From: a virus
Taxonomy: Duplodnaviria > Caudoviricetes
Reading direction: 5' to 3' (one strand)
DNA length: 54,510 nt
Virus record (IMG/VR): IMGVR_UViG_3300036770_001615
Span: 1-54,510 of that record
In this document: positions 1,298-8,872 of the stretch, one piece after another
Layout of the letters: the number at the start of each line of letters is the position of its first letter
Numbering within the stretch: the stretch's first letter is position 1
Program-made: the position numbers and the translations under genes
Notes under the pieces: generated by a model
The model's input: only the letters and a program-made list of their open reading frames with translations
Databases searched by the model: none
Told to the model about the DNA's origin: nothing

Positions 1298-1374
1298 GCC
1301 CCGGTGACGGAATTGGCATACGTGTCGGTCTTAGAAGCCGAATTTTAGGGGTTCGACTCCCCTCTGGGGCACCA
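1298..1374 (+). tRNA. tRNA-Leu(TAG), short variable loop
   Basis: TCGGT-CTTAGAA-GCCGA, 5-nt V loop, CCA. Confidence 0.9.
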
Positions 1375-1477
1375 TATTAAAACACATTCAAGGCTAAGTA
1401 CACGCCTTACTGTAGCAGTAGCCCTGCCTTGTGGCAGTGGTGGACGGTGCAACTCCGTTGAGTGTGTTTCAATATGG
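1372..1477 (+). ncRNA. Stem-closed RNA cassette A (cloverleaf-like cargo)
   Basis: CCATATTAAAACACATTCAA pairs with TTGAGTGTGTTTCAATATGG. Four internal hairpins, the last T-arm-like (ACGG-TGCAACT-CCGT). Confidence 0.65.
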
Positions 1478-1550
1478 GCTGTTAGTGATAATGGGAGCAC
1501 AGCGGGTTTGCACCTCGCAAGTAAGAGTTCGATTCTCTTACGGTCCACCA
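1476..1550 (+). tRNA. tRNA-Ala(TGC)
   Basis: G3:U70, TTTGCAC loop, CCA. Confidence 0.9.
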
Positions 1551-1556
1551 AAATTT

Positions 1557-1633
1557 GCCCTGGTGATGGAACAGGTATACGTGTCTGACTCAAAATCAGA
1601 ATTTTGTGGGTTCGAATCCCACCTAGGGCACCA
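1557..1633 (+). tRNA. tRNA-Leu(CAA), short variable loop
   Basis: TCTGA-CTCAAAA-TCAGA, 5-nt V loop, CCA. Confidence 0.9.
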
Positions 1634-1634
1634 C

Positions 1635-1663
1635 TTGACATTAATCACGATATCAAGTAGAAT
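1635..1663 (+). promoter_or_regulatory. sigma70 promoter
   Basis: TTGACA-17-TAGAAT. Confidence 0.85.
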
Positions 1664-1672
1664 ACATTTAAT

Positions 1673-1747
1673 TGGGGATTCGCCAAGCGGTAAGGCATCG
1701 GATTTTGATTCCGACATTCCCAGGTTCGATCCCTGGATCCCCAGCCA
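1673..1747 (+). tRNA. tRNA-Gln(TTG)
   Basis: T1:A72, TTTTGAT loop, CCA. Confidence 0.95.
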
Positions 1748-1760
1748 AAGGAGATATATC

Positions 1761-1940
1761 ATGAAAACAGTAACATTTGAAAGTGTATATAATAAAGAGA
1801 AGTTTACCTGTAACGGTAAGTCCTTGCAGGATGTTAGAGTTATTGATGGTATAGAATACCTACGTGTCTTTAAGTTCGGGACACACCGTGAGGTATTAGT
1901 TCGTAAAGATACTCTAAAAAGGGTATCTAACAAACGGTGA
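1761..1940 (+). CDS. Hypothetical protein (59 aa)
   Basis: AAGGAG SD before ATG 1761. Confidence 0.7.
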   Translation: MKTVTFESVYNKEKFTCNGKSLQDVRVIDGIEYLRVFKFGTHREVLVRKDTLKRVSNKR

Positions 1941-1966
1941 TTAAATAAAAGAAGATAGGAGTTATC

Positions 1967-2530
1967 ATGGCTGTTTTGGCATTGGACATCTCAGGAATTC
2001 CTAGGCAATGGATTTCCTTTGATGACGCTATTGTGTATCATGCAAAGGAACTTGTTGCATGGAGTCTTGGAGATGTAGTAGCAAGGTATCGTGGTGGAAT
2101 TCAAAACGACGGTACTGAAAGTTATTTAGAAACCCCAAGCATTATTGCAATTAGAGGTCATGGATTTGACCCTGCGCGGCACAATAGAGTTAGTCTAACC
2201 AATCGAACATTGTTCGGTCGAGACAGGCATGTTTGTGCATACTGCGGAGGTCACTTCCCTAACTATCATCACCTAAGTCGAGACCACATCATGCCTAAAA
2301 GCAAGGGTGGTACCGATACTTGGATGAACGTTGTGACCGCTTGTAAGGAATGCAACGGTAAAAAAGGTAATAAGACATTGAAGGAAGCACGTATGGAACT
2401 GATTTACGTACCCTACGTGCCCAATCATTATGAAAATATGATTCTACAAAACCGCACGATTCTTGCGGATCAAATGGAGTACTTGCTAGCAGGTGTTCCA
2501 AAACATAGTAGAATTTTAAAAATGTCTTGA
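1967..2530 (+). CDS. HNH endonuclease (McrA-like)
   Basis: RDRHVCAYCG..DHIMPKSKGG...NVVTACKECNGKK. Confidence 0.9.
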   Translation: MAVLALDISGIPRQWISFDDAIVYHAKELVAWSLGDVVARYRGGIQNDGTESYLETPSIIAIRGHGFDPARHNRVSLTNRTLFGRDRHVCAYCGGHFPNYHHLSRDHIMPKSKGGTDTWMNVVTACKECNGKKGNKTLKEARMELIYVPYVPNHYENMILQNRTILADQMEYLLAGVPKHSRILKMS

Positions 2531-2570
2531 CAATAAACTATTTATCCTGTATACTACGGGGTAAATAGTT
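2527..2570 (+). promoter_or_regulatory. sigma70 promoter with overlapping hairpin and TAAATA
   Basis: TTGACA-17-TATACT. Inverted repeat 2536-2550/2556-2570. Confidence 0.8.
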
Positions 2571-2579
2571 ATGAATTAT

Positions 2580-2655
2580 TCCGCGATAGCTCAGTTGGTA
2601 GAGCAAGTGACTGTTAATCACTGGGTCCCTGGTTCGAGCCCAGGTCGTGGAGCCA
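2580..2655 (+). tRNA. tRNA-Asn(GTT)
   Basis: AGTGA-CTGTTAA-TCACT, CCA. Confidence 0.95.
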
Positions 2656-2666
2656 ATTTAAAATAT

Positions 2667-6608: not shown

Positions 6609-6681
6609 ATAAAAACTAGTTCTTTACTGTCTATTAGACACTAAATATTAGTGTCTGAAATAAGGCATAAAGGAGAAAACA

Positions 6682-6840
6682 ATGGATATGGACGTTATAG
6701 TTCCCATAGTTATAGTTTTAGTAGTAGCCGGATTCTTCTTTTGGAAGAAAAAAGGCAATAGTGCTGATGCACCAGTTGATGGTGAAAATGTCGGTGGTGG
6801 TGGGAAACCCACTGATACTAAAAATCAGCAATTGAAATAA
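6682..6840 (+). CDS. Small membrane protein (52 aa)
   Basis: AAGGAG SD; MDMDVIVPIVIVLVVAGFFFWKKKG... (not in ORF track). Confidence 0.7.
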   Translation: MDMDVIVPIVIVLVVAGFFFWKKKGNSADAPVDGENVGGGGKPTDTKNQQLK

Positions 6841-6843
6841 GCA

Positions 6844-7048
6844 GACCCCGGTTTACACTTTTACGTTATATAAAGTGGGCAATTGTCGTAGCCATACGGA
6901 CACGGTAAGATTGTTATAGACCGCAAGGCTCACTATATGGGCGACTTGAGACACACAATCGGGCAGAAGCAAAACTGACCTAGATGCAAATGTTGACGGA
7001 CAGGGTAACAACTCAGTTCGGGGCTAAATGGGATTAGTGGCCGAACAT
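6844..7048 (+). ncRNA. Structured RNA (~200 nt), unknown family
   Basis: Non-coding, GC-richer. CCCCGG/TCGGGG ends, CACTTT/AAAGTG, GATTGT/ACAATC, TATAG-ACC-GCAA-GG..CTATA hairpins. Confidence 0.6.
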
Positions 7049-7061
7049 TTTAATATTACAC

Positions 7062-7601
7062 ATGAAACTTAACGACTACATTTTTGTTAGCAAACTTTTT
7101 GATTCACAAGAATGCGATGAAATAATAAACAAAACCAATCAGTATAAATGGCGCCAACATAAATGGAATGCCTCTAATACAAAGGTTAAGTCAGTAGAGG
7201 AAATCGATAACATTCTAGTATGTAATATTGATCCTTTACTTGAAAGTAAAATATCTCCTAAGTTATTGAACGTATTTGGAAAATATAGTATCCTATTTGG
7301 ACCACATAGTGTTCCAATTCAGTTGACTAATCAATGGGATAATATTAGAATAAACAAATATACAGAAGGTGTCGGTATGAGAAATCATATTGATCACGGT
7401 ATAGATAGGGAACATCCTGTACTTACAATCATTGCGTTATTGAATGACGAATTCACAGGTGGTAATACTTTTATCTTAAATGAGGAAGTATTGCTTAAGA
7501 AAGGTGACTGTGTTATCTTTCCTAGTAATTTTATGTATCCACATGAAATTAAACCTGTAGTGAATGGTACAAGATATTCACTAACTACTTGGGCTTATTA
7601 A
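7062..7601 (+). CDS. 2OG-Fe(II) oxygenase (prolyl-4-hydroxylase-like)
   Basis: HIDH...FTGG...FPSNFMYPHEIKPV..GTRYS. Confidence 0.9.
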   Translation: MKLNDYIFVSKLFDSQECDEIINKTNQYKWRQHKWNASNTKVKSVEEIDNILVCNIDPLLESKISPKLLNVFGKYSILFGPHSVPIQLTNQWDNIRINKYTEGVGMRNHIDHGIDREHPVLTIIALLNDEFTGGNTFILNEEVLLKKGDCVIFPSNFMYPHEIKPVVNGTRYSLTTWAY

Positions 7602-7612
7602 CCCAAAACTGT

Positions 7613-7641
7613 TTGACAAAAAATCAAAAGTAATATACAAT
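7613..7641 (+). promoter_or_regulatory. sigma70 promoter of the ncRNA operon
   Basis: TTGACA-17-TACAAT. Confidence 0.85.
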
Positions 7642-7653
7642 ACGTTGTATTGA

Positions 7654-7683
7654 CGCTGAGAAATCAGCAACGTTCTTTAAAAA
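7654..7683 (+). promoter_or_regulatory. rrn-type boxB-boxA signal, copy 2
   Basis: Identical to 4462-4491. Confidence 0.75.
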
Positions 7684-7698
7684 TTATTAGTATAAAGG

Positions 7699-7930
7699 GA
7701 AGTCTTTATACACATGACAATTAAATGTCAGCAAATGAAAGTCACTATTGTTAGTAGCCGGCCAGCCAAAGCAATAGTAAGCAGTGGGGGGCGCAAAACC
7801 CTAGCAAAACCTAGACACACTGGATGAGTAACTGAAGTGACGTACCGAGTCCTGCCCGGGTTTAATTACACAGGTGAATGGTGCTAATAACGATGGTAGC
7901 ACATTTTAGTTGTCAGTTGTATAAAGATTT
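7699..7930 (+). ncRNA. ~230-nt self-closed structured RNA or domain
   Basis: GAAGTCTTTATAC..TGACAATTAAA pairs with TTTAGTTGTCA..GTATAAAGATTTC; internal hairpins. Confidence 0.65.
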
Positions 7931-7934
7931 CAAA

Positions 7935-8805
7935 GATTGGGGGCATAGCCTCGTTAGAATAAGTGTAGCGATACACCCAAAGCAGAATCCGCCTACAGGA
8001 CTGCACCAGCAATGGTTCATCTATGCAAGCCTGCTCACACCCGTGAGGGTGCGATCACTGATAAGACCGGTGGTTGTAACAATGAAGCAAGTGTGTTGGA
8101 AAGAATGTCTGTTTAAGTCCCCGCAAGGGTAAGACAGGCAGACAGAGAGTAACAGGTGGTGCTGACCTCAACACAAAACCAACTTGTCAATTGGTATGAG
8201 AAAGGGTAGTATATATTGTCCGAAGGGTCGCTCCTAAGGGCGTGTATGCAGTATGAGTGGTTAATGGGTATTGATTACGGGTCAATATACATAAATCGCA
8301 AAATACGTCTGAGTAGTCCGCGAGACAAAAGGAACGTGGTGTGTTGTATTATGTAATCCAAAAGATTATGTAGCAACTGAGGCAGCACATCATAGTAGGT
8401 TCAGTTATAGCACAACGGTAGTGCAACTCCATTTATCCAGGAGTCGGCTGAAGGTTCAAATCCTTCTAACGATTATAAAAACGCAAAGTCTGCCTCGGTT
8501 GTATGTGAAAAGCATCTAACTCTCAGGCCGCAAGGTAACTGAGACTGACGTAACTCGCAAGGTGAAATCAGTTTATGCTAGAAGATTCGTAACGGTTTAG
8601 CGACTGTGAATGGCTCGCAAGGTCAACGGGTAATAAAGCGTAGAGTAGCATATAACGTCAAGTCTACTGCATGACTTTAAACTGCGATGCTGGTAATAGA
8701 CGTAGATACCGCAAGGGTTTACGTGGATATCGGAAGAAAGTATTCTCGCAAGGAATACAATAATGTCCGAGGTATTACTGGCTAACGTGTAATCTCAGCG
8801 TTAGC
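7935..8805 (+). ncRNA. Large ornate RNA, GOLLD-like (boundaries approximate)
   Basis: ~870 nt with no credible ORF; dense GNRA-capped hairpins (CGCAAGG x6); terminal GCTAACG-TGTAATCTCAG-CGTTAGC hairpin; phage tRNA-array context. Confidence 0.75.
8401..8473 (+). ncRNA. tRNA-like domain embedded in the GOLLD-like RNA
   Basis: D arm GCAC-AACGGTA-GTGC, ACTCC-(9-nt loop)-GGAGT, T arm GAAGG-TTCAAAT-CCTTC; no CCA. Confidence 0.75.
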
Positions 8806-8806
8806 A

Positions 8807-8872
8807 TTATTCTAAAACACATTCGCAACCACAAGGTAGTGAAATGTACGAGGGGAGTGTGTTTTAGAATAA
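8807..8872 (+). ncRNA. Stem-closed RNA cassette D
   Basis: TTATTCTAAAACACATTC / GAGTGTGTTTTAGAATAA; shares AAAACACATTC/GAGTGTGTTT with cassette A. Confidence 0.6.

Follow-up and report, generated by a model that had tools for sequence, protein, structure and literature searches.

A sequence-conserved hairpin RNA module in the tRNA arrays of uncultured jumbo phages

The window, which is the whole stretch of 54,510 nucleotides of the IMG/VR virus record IMGVR_UViG_3300036770_001615 (Duplodnaviria; Caudoviricetes), contains several tRNA genes, a GOLLD RNA and four long-stemmed hairpins (cassettes A-D). The initial annotation described these hairpins as a family of four RNA cassettes, each closed by a related stem of 18-24 bp around unrelated cargo and docked on tRNA CCA ends. 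The locus raises the question of whether the four are genuine RNA elements, how far their family extends and what the closing helix does. The features are collected in Table 1.

Table 1. Coordinates of the cassettes and of the neighbouring features in the window. Bit scores of the cassettes are those of the family covariance model.
Feature	Position	Strand	Remarks
tRNA-Leu(UAG)	1298..1374	+	helix A begins with the four pairs of A73-C-C-A76 (1371-1374)
Cassette A	1371..1478	+	54.4 bits, E 2e-10
tRNA-Ala(UGC)	1476..1550	+	the right arm of A ends on G1-G2 (1476-1477)
Sigma-70-like promoter (TTGACA-17-TAGAAT)	4424..4452	+	upstream of tRNA-Leu(UAA) and B; consensus match only
tRNA-Leu(UAA)	4510..4596	+	C72-A73-CCA (4592-4596) inside the left arm of B
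Cassette B	4592..4742	+	27.4 bits, E 4e-4
Sigma-70-like promoter	5676..5704	+	upstream of tRNA-Lys(UUU) and C; consensus match only
tRNA-Lys(UUU)	5813..5888	+	U72-A73-CCA (5884-5888) inside the left arm of C
Cassette C	5884..6127	+	39.2 bits
tRNA-Met(CAU)	6132..6206	+	begins 4 nt past the right arm of C
Sigma-70-like promoter	7613..7641	+	upstream of GOLLD and D; consensus match only
GOLLD RNA (part matched by Rfam)	8336..8801	+	213.6 bits, cut-off 150
Cassette D	8805..8874	+	43.8 bits

The four hairpins are genuine, and they are members of a large family with a common stem and varied inner parts. None of 200 shuffles folds as well as the native sequence for any of A, B, C and D (-45.6, -56.0, -74.0 and -23.4 kcal/mol; z -5.4, -6.1, -4.4 and -6.2, respectively). 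Helix A has 19-20 bp and is framed either as 1371-1389/1460-1478 or as 1372-1391/1458-1477; in the second frame it contains 18 Watson-Crick pairs, one G.U (U.G at 1387/1462) and one A.C (1379/1470). Cassette B has arms of 20 nt (4592-4611/4723-4742), C shows a helix of 24 bp (5884-5907/6104-6127) with 21 Watson-Crick pairs and three G.U, and D shows a helix of 18 bp (8807-8824/8855-8872) with a U.G at 8822/8857. The loops comprise 66 nt in A (about 70 in the other helix frame), 111 in B, 196 in C and 30 in D, the cargo sizes first reported. On the + strand, the non-Watson-Crick pairs of the four stems are six G.U and one A.C; they are mostly G-U, as had been noted, but the A.C of cassette A had been overlooked. 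Run as a full model over the entire 54,510 bases, the family covariance model recovers exactly A, B, C and D, with no fifth site at E<1, and no Rfam family matches any of the cassettes, even at E<=5. A widespread hairpin RNA module is represented by cassettes A, C and D, the last being a subtype with the outer box UAUUCUA in place of ACCAUAU. The relatedness claimed for all four stems is looser in B, which is only a marginal family member: its outer helix is family-like (CACCAUAUAAAAG...), this outer half is all that it has in common with the family, the inner helix differs (GUGUUAUC/GAUAGCAC), and so does the position of the wobble (U.G at 4607/4727).

The family is not restricted to four members, as first proposed; its copies number in the hundreds, and the phage contigs that carry them well over 100. 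In 60 related jumbo-phage loci, the covariance model R1 yields 233 rows with E<=0.01, corresponding to about 133 sites by hand count, and the family is conserved in these loci. A sequence-only weight matrix shows 117 left-arm matches in 1.00 Mb of relatives and none in unrelated phage loci totalling 0.88 Mb. At least 120 further IMG/VR contigs match a strict arm pattern. The helix was not found in 50,697 GenBank phage records, and the supposition that the family had no prior description agrees with our searches of Rfam, papers and GenBank phages, which returned none. The module occurs only within tRNA arrays, and its carriers are uncultured jumbo phages, most of them from fresh water. Every R1 site is within the tRNA-array locus in records of 364, 260, 124 and 316 kb, and the strict arm pattern matches only three contigs among 185,579 cellular species genomes, each a dense tRNA array in which tRNA-Lys(UUU) is immediately followed by the hairpin. 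A complete relative of 385 kb contains the tRNA array without hairpins, so the module is dispensable. The family keeps one orientation, that of the tRNA strand, in nearly every copy: this strand gives the higher score at about 130 of the 133 sites, and 15 out of 15 hairpins are co-oriented with tRNAs in a second sample.

A multi-copy palindrome might instead be mobile or recombining DNA (MITE-, Correia-, REPIN-like or attC-like) that inserts at or near ACCA and shuffles tRNA genes. The numerous copies, the tandem arrays and the AT-rich borders would suit such an element, and so would the same A-type cargo in different tRNA contexts (after Leu-UAG in the window, after Lys-UUU in L092, L093 and L116) and orthologous junctions that are both filled and empty. 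The Lys-UUU/Met spacer has 4 nt in L117 and L118 versus 72-243 nt in four others, and the Leu-UAA/Met spacer has 6 nt in L101. However, no target-site duplication was seen at the empty orthologous sites, and inspection by eye showed no direct repeat flanking the filled ones. The absence of copies outside the tRNA array of 260-364 kb genomes, their orientation with the tRNAs and the near absence of the pattern from cellular genomes also argue against mobility, as do arm differences that are compensatory rather than independent decay, and cargos that show no relation, in contrast to the common inside expected for copies of one MITE. Genes for a Y1 transposase or a tyrosine recombinase were found in none of five relatives' records. 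REP/REPIN and Correia repeats are multi-copy imperfect palindromes in transcribed bacterial intergenic DNA that form RNA hairpins, those of Correia being RNase III substrates; they are scattered genome-wide in both orientations and have a common inside and a cognate transposase. The phage family is likewise multi-copy, hairpin-forming and imperfectly palindromic, but it is array-only, in one orientation in nearly every copy; its insides are unrelated, and the five relatives' records gave no transposase. Mobility is therefore disfavoured and seems very improbable.

The family helix, as defined by the covariance model and the strict arm pattern, has about 19 bp and is conserved in sequence (5'-ACCAUAUUgAAACACAUU / AGUGUGUUUcAAUAUGGU-3'). 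Besides three covarying pairs, it comprises an outer box (ACCAUAU/AUAUGGU) and an inner box (AAACACAUU/AGUGUGUUU), the latter carrying a near-invariant U.G wobble; one fixed position in the covarying part is G-C, A-U or a non-standard pair, which is A.C in cassette A. In the first set, 92% of the cells pair, a percentage that is inflated because the rows of this alignment were picked with a stem finder, and double changes occur at 17 of 21 pairs; none of 500 shuffles matches the observed values. An independent set comprises 83 distinct rows; here, double changes occur at 13 of 19 pairs, and a position unconstrained by the search pattern shows UA in 39 rows, AU in 37 and GC in five. When the arms are picked by sequence alone, 102 unique copies contain 1691 Watson-Crick, 163 G.U, 46 A.C and 38 other pairs. 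The compensatory differences first seen between the cassettes thus extend to the family, and the covariation supports the selection at the RNA level that had been proposed. However, the stem is also conserved in sequence, with many invariant or nearly invariant columns and the U.G wobble retained in 78 of the 83 independent rows, and arm position 9 holds a non-standard pair in about half of the copies (41 of these rows); the strand asymmetry partly cancels there because the A.C of cassette A is a G.U on the opposite strand.

Docking on tRNA ends is observed in part of the family. ARAGORN places the 3' ends of the tRNAs upstream of A, B and C at 1374, 4596 and 5888, so their CCA is inside the left arms, as the initial annotation stated; the right arm of A also takes in the first two bases of the downstream tRNA-Ala. 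In many copies the upstream discriminator-CCA builds the outer box, sometimes together with the first bases of the next tRNA. The hairpin starts exactly at the discriminator-CCA in 39 of 102 unique copies of the first set: 18 are docked on Lys-UUU, the commonest docked tRNA across the family, nine on Leu-UAA, four on Leu-CAA and eight on six other tRNAs. In the second sample 10 of 14 hairpins are docked in this way, and in 32 of the 102 copies the next tRNA is at most 12 nt past the hairpin end. Docking also persists at one site: the Leu-UAG/Ala junction contains a docked hairpin in the window and in L089, with different cargos, and apparent decayed right-arm remnants, read by eye, in L087 and L143. 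For the remaining 63 copies of the first set there is no docking on a called tRNA, and tandem arrays reach seven hairpins with no tRNAs in between, so tRNA maturation cannot be the sole role.

The module is transcribed together with the tRNAs of its array; the putative promoters ahead of B, C and D are near-consensus and on the + strand. The predicted fold of the Leu-A-Ala precursor shows the tRNA-Leu cloverleaf coexisting with helix A. We consider that the helix is, with a probability of about 0.5, a co-transcribed processing and stability handle that would be cut by a double-strand RNase. The initial annotation had read the family as a modular small-RNA system with RNase III-type excision or a shared protein-binding handle, coupled to tRNA 3' maturation. 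This interpretation is partly supported: the family, its compensatory changes, its orientation and its link to tRNA 3' ends are borne out, and RNase III excision, circles and a binding protein are putative. With a stable helix flush on the CCA, exonucleolytic trimming from the 3' side would be blocked, and therefore a double-strand-specific endonuclease would have to open the helix. RNase III domains (PF14622, PF00636) were found in none of the records of five relatives, two of which are complete genomes, and we infer that the host would supply the enzyme, its RNase III. After cleavage, a short 3' trailer would remain on the upstream tRNA or GOLLD, and the next tRNA would carry a short 5' leader for RNase P; the cargo, with the inner part of the helix as its cap, would be freed as a small RNA that is stable and structured. 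The RNA runs examined are contigs only and carry nothing on cleavage. RNase III stems enclose stable RNAs in bacterial 16S and 23S rRNA precursors and in phage T7 early transcripts. The phage hairpins resemble them in a long helix of about two turns formed by the flanks in a polycistronic precursor, with a host enzyme as the proposed cutter. They differ in repeating one sequence-conserved helix hundreds of times around unrelated cargos, in a helix that is partly tRNA CCA and in their confinement to phage tRNA arrays; cleavage of the family helix is inferred.

The conservation of the helix in sequence is not required by RNase III and points rather to a sequence-reading partner; no such partner was found. 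The helix could thus be a protein-binding handle, Y RNA-like or of another RNP scaffold, in which a phage or host protein reads the boxes together with the U.G and the non-standard pair, and in which the working parts are the variable cargos, such as tRNA-like decoys or aptamers. This reading is compatible with processing, and we regard it as a tentative, rather unlikely one. It fits a helix conserved beyond pairing and the cargos, which range from 21 to 278 nt and are diverse (103 cargos form 85 clusters, extending to the family the lack of relation reported among A-D), yet each class is conserved and covaries. A T-loop-like GTTCRA is found in 13 of the 103 cargos versus 3.3 expected, with a maximum of nine in any of 200 shuffles, and the last hairpin of cargo A, a 5-bp stem with a 7-nt loop, is T-arm-like. 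In Y RNAs the 5' and 3' ends pair into a closing helix that carries a conserved part for protein binding, and there is a variable module, which in YrlA is tRNA-like; the phage hairpins also show a long closing helix and a variable module, with T-loop-like elements in some. On the other side, no candidate protein was found: a Ro/TROVE gene was found in none of the five relatives' records, and the ORF at 5139-5507, the only array-conserved ORF tested, is also present in hairpin-less relatives and shows no recognisable fold. The Rfam Y RNA and YrlA models gave no match on cassettes A-D (YrlA being in the search), and to our knowledge the helix of Y RNAs looks different in sequence.

The cargos also bear on whether the hairpins are passive structural spacers, which would insulate the tRNAs from misfolding in long precursors or, REP-like, block exonucleases, with loops of neutral filler and spread by local duplication. 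The hairpins exactly fill inter-tRNA spacers, 71 of the 85 cargo clusters are singletons, tandem duplicates exist (two copies with identical cargo in L112) and one complete relative is wholly without hairpins, all of which would be expected of spacers. However, cargos A, B and C are conserved: A has homologues in L092, L093 and L116, B contains three inner hairpins that covary across five phages, and C has conserved blocks and a long-range pairing in common with cargos of L109, L090 and L114. Covarying inner hairpins and conserved unpaired blocks that persist among phages with 43-82% identity in a marker protein are unlike neutral filler, the conserved sequence, the wobble and the fixed mismatch are superfluous for a mere insulator, and burial of the CCA in a helix is a hindrance to tRNA 3' maturation unless the helix is cut. 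A purely passive role is improbable on this evidence.

Among viral RNAs, RNAC and RNAD of phage T4 are located in the T4 tRNA gene cluster, and we know of no repeated conserved closing helix in them. The function of these species 1 and 2 RNAs is described as yet unknown (PMC9697503). They resemble the hairpin family in being small stable RNAs among phage tRNA genes, made from the same region, and differ in being two single genes; the family helix, for its part, is absent from the 50,697 GenBank phage records. The TMERs of murine gammaherpesvirus 68 contain a tRNA-like element and two pre-miRNA hairpins and are processed by tRNase Z and Dicer (PMC4838037). Both systems show hairpin RNAs directly after a viral tRNA or tRNA-like element, with one end of the hairpin RNA set by the tRNA end-processing machinery, which for the phage family is a proposal. 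The TMERs differ in their eukaryotic virus, Pol III transcription, miRNA products, the lack of a common helix sequence and a CCA outside the helix, whereas the phage family has real tRNAs, bacterial-type arrays and structured cargos of up to about 280 nt.

Cassette D begins at 8805-8807, 4 nt past the end of the GOLLD match (8801), in agreement with its first description as following a GOLLD-like RNA. A family hairpin is located 3-4 nt past the match in all three sources with an Rfam GOLLD, and the D subtype is found after GOLLD in L143 and L096 as well.

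With its 54,510 bases, the window is an entire IMG/VR virus record, and the completeness estimate of 14% makes it a fragment of a very large phage. It contains 29 tRNA genes between 370 and 11386, all of them on the + strand, and a GOLLD RNA. A megablast search with window positions 1-9000 found no close GenBank phage and showed matches to single tRNAs only. Cassettes A, B, C and D, in which a common helix of about 19 bp closes a variable inner part (the cargo), are all located within 1371-8874, inside the tRNA array and on the + strand. The four stems were found where the initial annotation had placed them, with arms of 24 nt in C, 20 nt in B and 18 nt in D. 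Stem A shows 20 pairs: 18 are Watson-Crick, one is G.U and one is an A.C mismatch (1379/1470), and no stem of the four contains more than three wobble pairs or mismatches. The folds of A-D are better than those of shuffled sequences (z -4.4 to -6.2, none of 200 shuffles being as good), and in the three cassettes whose strands were compared the + strand folds better than the - strand: -45.6 against -42.7 kcal/mol in A, -56.0 against -46.8 in B and -23.4 against -20.0 in D. As had been noticed, the CCA is inside the stem in A, B and C, since the tRNA 3' ends at 1374, 4596 and 5888 fall within the left arms, and the right arm of A takes its final two bases, G1-G2, from the downstream tRNA-Ala. 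D begins 4-6 nt 3' of the GOLLD match. When the Leu-A-Ala precursor is folded in silico, helix A forms next to the tRNA-Leu cloverleaf, and the discriminator alone separates the two. None of the cassettes matches an existing Rfam family at gathering score or at E<=5. R1, a covariance model of the family helix, finds the four cassettes in the whole window with filters off (A 54.4 bits, D 43.8, C 39.2 and B 27.4) and no further site at E<1. B is a marginal member of the family, its score being low because the inner box differs and the wobble sits at position 15.

Location of the cassettes and of other elements in the window and in related jumbo-phage tRNA-array loci (L handles)
Feature	Source	Position	Remark
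Cassette A	window	1371-1478	adjoins tRNA-Leu(UAG)/tRNA-Ala(UGC)
Cassette B	window	4592-4742	adjoins tRNA-Leu(UAA)
Cassette C	window	5884-6127	adjoins tRNA-Lys(UUU)/tRNA-Met(CAU)
Cassette D	window	8805-8874	adjoins GOLLD RNA
GOLLD RNA	window	8336-8801	Rfam match, 213.6 bits
Six best sigma-70-like sites	window	1635, 2527, 4271, 4424, 5676, 7613	+ strand; 11-12 of 12 consensus matches, spacer 17 nt
Small hairpin and tail, identical copies	window	4463-4485, 7655-7677	GCUGAGAAAUCAGC, then AACGUUCUUU
tRNA-like by eye	window	955-1128	T-arm-like GGUUCGAAUCC near 1089
tRNA-like by eye	window	6293-6390	anticodon-loop-like CUGUAAA, 3' end CCACCA
HNH endonuclease ORF	window	1967-2530	Pfam HNH_5, E 2e-16
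Inverted repeat, longest of the region	window	7699-7725/7905-7931	27 nt, 85% complementary, 179 nt apart
D-like hairpin	L093	5587-5669	outer box CUAUUCUA
D-like hairpin	L110	8607-8689	outer box CUAUUCUA
D-like hairpin	L095	4771-4854	outer box CUAUUCUA
Second hairpin family	L086	1819-1918	
Second hairpin family	L087	4791-4888	
Second hairpin family	L110	9229-9326	
Second hairpin family	L143	7743-7843	
Second hairpin family	L089	1378-1476	far from next tRNA
Group I introns and one-locus tmRNA gene	L095, L090, L155	13949-14141, 17551-17742, 13937-14332	introns Rfam, 65 and 57 bits; tmRNA ARAGORN

The family helix, of about 19 bp, shows an outer box ACCAUAU/AUAUGGU (UAUUCUA in a subtype), an inner box AAACACAUU/AGUGUGUUU and a U.G wobble at arm position 17. 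The same left arm is recurrent in the arrays of relatives, as found with a neutral stem finder. A first alignment of 58 short-loop copies, whose arms align gap-free, has the consensus 5'-(Y)ACCAUAUUgAAACACAUUn ... nAGUGUGUUUcAAUAUGGU(A)-3'. In this alignment, 92% of the cells pair and 17 of the 21 pairs show changes on both sides, values reached in none of 500 shuffles, and a shift of the partner by one to three columns cuts pairing to 29-51%. The 92% figure is inflated because the copies came from the stem finder, and therefore two checks without selection for pairing were made. In one of them, arms were picked from sequence alone by weight matrices, which yielded 113 paired modules (102 unique ones) from 36 of the 61 sources; the unique copies contain 1691 Watson-Crick pairs, 163 G.U, 46 A.C and 38 other pairs. 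The matrices show 117 left-arm and 119 right-arm matches in 1.00 Mb of relatives and, at the same threshold, no left-arm and two right-arm matches in 0.88 Mb of unrelated phage loci. The other check used a strict pattern, with the two boxes fixed and three positions per arm free; R1 matches in 77 loci with this pattern gave an independent set of 83 distinct rows, three loci on already-used contigs being left out. One free position is UA in 39 rows, AU in 37 and GC in five, its neighbour is GC in 33, AU in eight, CG in one and a non-standard pair in 41, and U.G is kept at the wobble position in 78. Thus, the helix is conserved in sequence at its two boxes, covaries between them and keeps the U.G wobble, and about half of the copies have a mismatch at one fixed position. 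The compensatory arm changes initially described for the four cassettes extend to the family, both in the double changes of the alignment and in the UA/AU/GC swaps of the independent set.

Relatives of the ORF located at 5139-5507, between B and C, are present on 60 IMG/VR contigs, most of them with large tRNA arrays, and every tRNA called on these contigs shares the strand of the ORF homologue. The covariance-model scan of the window and the 60 related loci finds the helix widely, which upholds its conservation in relatives. In the related loci R1 shows 233 rows at E<=0.01 (about 132 + and 101 -), corresponding to about 133 sites, figures counted by hand that may be off by one or two, and the + (tRNA) strand outscores the - strand at about 130 of the 133 sites. 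The initial description of a four-member family is thus right for the window, but the family is far larger. The strict arm pattern is found in at least 120 further viral stretches of IMG/VR. In relatives' records of 364 kb (complete), 260 kb, 124 kb and 316 kb, the R1 sites are all inside the tRNA-array locus, and a complete relative of 385 kb shows no R1 site. Among 185,579 bacterial and archaeal species, with one genome each, the strict pattern is only present in metagenome bins, on three short contigs. Each of them is a dense tRNA array with the hairpin directly 3' of tRNA-Lys(UUU), and they are read as phage DNA binned with cells. GenBank phages do not contain the family helix (blastn of a short member: one chance match, E=6).

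Docking on tRNA 3' ends, described for A, B and C, holds for part of the family. Of 102 unique copies, 39 are docked, starting exactly at the discriminator-CCA of the upstream tRNA: 18 on tRNA-Lys(UUU), nine on tRNA-Leu(UAA), four on tRNA-Leu(CAA) and eight on six other tRNAs; 32 have their end no more than 12 nt away from the next tRNA, and 50 are in contact with no called tRNA. A hand check of the initial 12 loci of the independent set, with 15 hairpins, places all 15 on the tRNA strand; docking could be judged in 14 and is present in 10 of these, four on tRNA-Lys(UUU), four on tRNA-Glu(UUC) and one on each of tRNA-Thr(UGU) and tRNA-Gly(UCC). In several copies, such as window A and that of L108, the 3' end of the right arm overlaps the 5' end of the next tRNA. 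Tandem runs without tRNAs exist as well, and L112 shows seven R1 matches within 4644-5890. The arrangement of D, directly after the GOLLD RNA, is repeated in each of the three sources with an Rfam GOLLD (the window, L096 and L143), where a family hairpin starts 3-4 nt 3' of the GOLLD match. In L093, L110 and L095, hairpins of a D-like subtype precede tRNA-Gln(UUG), with which the array opens, by 6-7 nt, and they may mark the array start as D marks the GOLLD end.

The cargos proved to be as unrelated as first stated: 103 of them form 85 similarity clusters, and 71 clusters are singletons. Cargo B has homologues in five phages, in which double changes preserve the pairing of three inner hairpins, and long unpaired stretches are conserved as well. 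Its CCA-docked outer helix is present in the window and L113 only; in the other homologues the outer helix differs in sequence and still pairs. L092, L093 and L116 share a conserved cargo A, there preceded by tRNA-Lys(UUU) instead of tRNA-Leu(UAG), and the 3' end of this cargo is a T-arm-like hairpin (stem of 5 bp, loop of 7 nt). Cargo C and the cargos of L109, L090 and L114 have conserved blocks and long-range pairing in common. The T-loop-like motif GTTCRA is found in 13 of the 103 cargos, whereas shuffles give an expectation of 3.3. Far from being noise, the cargos include at least three distinct structured RNAs that are conserved, namely classes A, B and C.

Some junctions are filled in one phage and empty in another, as would be found if the hairpins were transposons of the MITE, REPIN or Correia type or attC-type recombination sites. 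The spacer between tRNA-Lys(UUU) and tRNA-Met measures 72-243 nt in four loci and 4 nt in two others, L117 and L118, and that between tRNA-Leu(UAA) and tRNA-Met has 6 nt in L101 and 87-280 nt in fourteen others. These orthologous junctions, together with the presence of the same cargo in different contexts, speak for hairpin turnover. Of the empty-site alleles with target-site duplications that were named at the outset as the mark of MITEs, empty junctions exist, but no direct repeat was seen when filled and empty junctions were compared by eye, a weak test as the closest empty sites are from distant relatives. At the tRNA-Leu(UAG)/tRNA-Ala junction, docked hairpins with different cargos are present in the window and L089, and decayed right-arm remnants, as read by eye, in L087 and L143, which looks like long residence of the hairpin. 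Several other results are against mobile DNA: R1 sites are never outside the array in the four large records, a single orientation dominates in the related loci and in the hand-checked sample, the arm changes are compensatory, and the many cargo clusters leave the copies without a common inside. Palindromes of the MITE, REPIN or Correia type are disfavoured by the lack of this common inside, of genome-wide dispersal, of both orientations and of a cognate transposase, with RAYT/Y1 transposase (PF01797) in none of five relatives' records and no transposase among the 30 window ORFs scanned with Pfam; an integron attC-like site is disfavoured, as tyrosine recombinase (PF00589) is in none of the five records.

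Other classes do not fit either. Y RNA or YrlA finds neither a TROVE (Ro) protein (PF05731) in the five relatives' records nor an Rfam Y RNA match on the cassettes, and the sole weak YrlA row (E 0.13) falls on tRNA-His/Phe, off the cassettes. Intrinsic terminators were rejected because the closing helices of A-D are absent from the terminator scan, which lists only a small inner hairpin of cargo A (1443-1459), lack a U run and have A+U-rich stems. Arms enclosing tRNAs, in the order right arm, tRNA, left arm, do not fit the window, where the tRNAs by A, B and C are arm-flanked on one side only.

The window shows 40 sigma-70-like sites, a total not above that of shuffles (36), and each of the six best precedes a tRNA group or GOLLD. 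Since these six are all on the + strand and ahead of tRNA groups or GOLLD, the array seems to be split into several transcription units of host type. By consensus match, near-consensus + strand promoters are upstream of B, of C and of GOLLD/D. Two of the near-consensus promoters, 4424-4452 ahead of the tRNA-Leu(UAA)/B unit and 7613-7641 ahead of the GOLLD unit, are each directly followed by the same small hairpin with a tail, which may be a shared 5' leader element. Among 21 runs, five are listed on the record as RNA, each with a small word share, and four of these metatranscriptomes were examined as contigs. Their cover over the cassettes is thin and mixed with tRNAs of other organisms. The contigs pile up on GOLLD (window 7942-8742), with summed word depths up to thousands, and many of them differ from the window sequence; therefore, GOLLD RNAs of related phages seem to be abundant in lake RNA.

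The hairpins are a structured module, presumably transcribed, with a co-oriented, array-restricted and covarying RNA helix that often incorporates the CCA, and any mechanism beyond this we infer. A stable helix flush with the CCA would block 3' exonucleolytic trimming, and therefore docked tRNAs, if functional, would depend on an endonuclease active on double-stranded RNA. In bacteria the general enzyme with this activity is RNase III, and the stems, of 18-24 bp, are in the length range of its substrates (about 20 bp or more). As no RNase III (PF14622, PF00636) was found in the five relatives' records, two of them complete genomes, the host enzyme would do the cutting. One cut would give three products: the 3' end of the upstream tRNA or GOLLD, a downstream 5' leader for RNase P, and the cargo RNA, which would be released capped by its inner helix. 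RNase III alone leaves the conserved boxes, the wobble and the fixed mismatch unexplained, which leaves room for a sequence-reading partner. The arrays could be a platform from which the phages express a whole library of small structured RNAs; a dedicated partner would read the helix with its U.G wobble and fixed non-standard pair and direct how dozens of unrelated cargos are excised, stabilised or loaded, and some tRNA-like cargos could be decoys or aptamers against host tRNA-targeting or RNA-sensing defences; we give this reading roughly one chance in five. As for the partner, TROVE is absent from the five relatives' records, which the protein searches covered instead of the window's own genome (the window is about 14% of it), and the Pfam scan of 30 window ORFs shows no RNA-processing enzyme. 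The ORF at 5139-5507 encodes 122 aa with 43-82% identity on the 60 jumbo-phage contigs, nearly always among tRNAs. It shows no Pfam or PHROG match, and its confident structure model (pLDDT 89) has no Foldseek match at E<=0.001 (best VIA-align Z 3.4), so it gives no lead to the helix-reading partner.

The family is rated as belonging to the stem-flanked stable RNAs of polycistronic precursors or to the tRNA-linked hairpin RNAs. The RNase III processing stems that surround rRNAs and T7 RNAs are a near working analogue, and the T4 stable RNAs RNAC and RNAD are located in the T4 tRNA cluster. RNAC and RNAD are described as being of unknown function (PMC9697503), and herpesvirus TMERs as a tRNA-like element followed by hairpins, released with tRNase Z (PMC4838037); both are near working analogues too. 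The single conserved helix, the use of the CCA and the many unrelated structured cargos are unusual. No description of the helix family was found in Rfam 15, in GenBank phages or in the literature, with partial coverage of the latter (few subscription journals). Phage tRNA arrays are usually seen as sets of tRNAs for codon supply or anti-defence. The array spacers of a large clade of uncultured giant phages are not filler, but house hundreds of copies of a conserved and covarying RNA module. If it is a processing handle, it would be a natural counterpart of engineered tRNA-flanked RNA expression cassettes and would account for GOLLD and tRNA 3'-end formation in these phages; if it is a binding handle, there is an unknown RNA-protein system to discover. 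The helix is a ready search key to many new structured RNA candidates.

Arrays of relatives contain further elements. A second hairpin family shows a conserved 21-bp stem of other sequence (left arm similar to UAGACUUAUUAGGUGUGACC), which closes loops of about 56-59 nt, and four of its five copies end 1-5 nt before tRNA-Thr(GGU) or tRNA-Phe(GAA). Group I introns and, in one locus, a tmRNA gene are also present. In the window, the two regions that are tRNA-like by eye lie between called tRNAs and have no tRNA call by ARAGORN or Rfam. The longest inverted repeat, upstream of the Rfam GOLLD match, is probably in the GOLLD 5' half and has no relation to the hairpin family. The HNH endonuclease ORF found among the window tRNAs may be a homing-type element; T4 segB is a homing-type gene within the T4 tRNA cluster.
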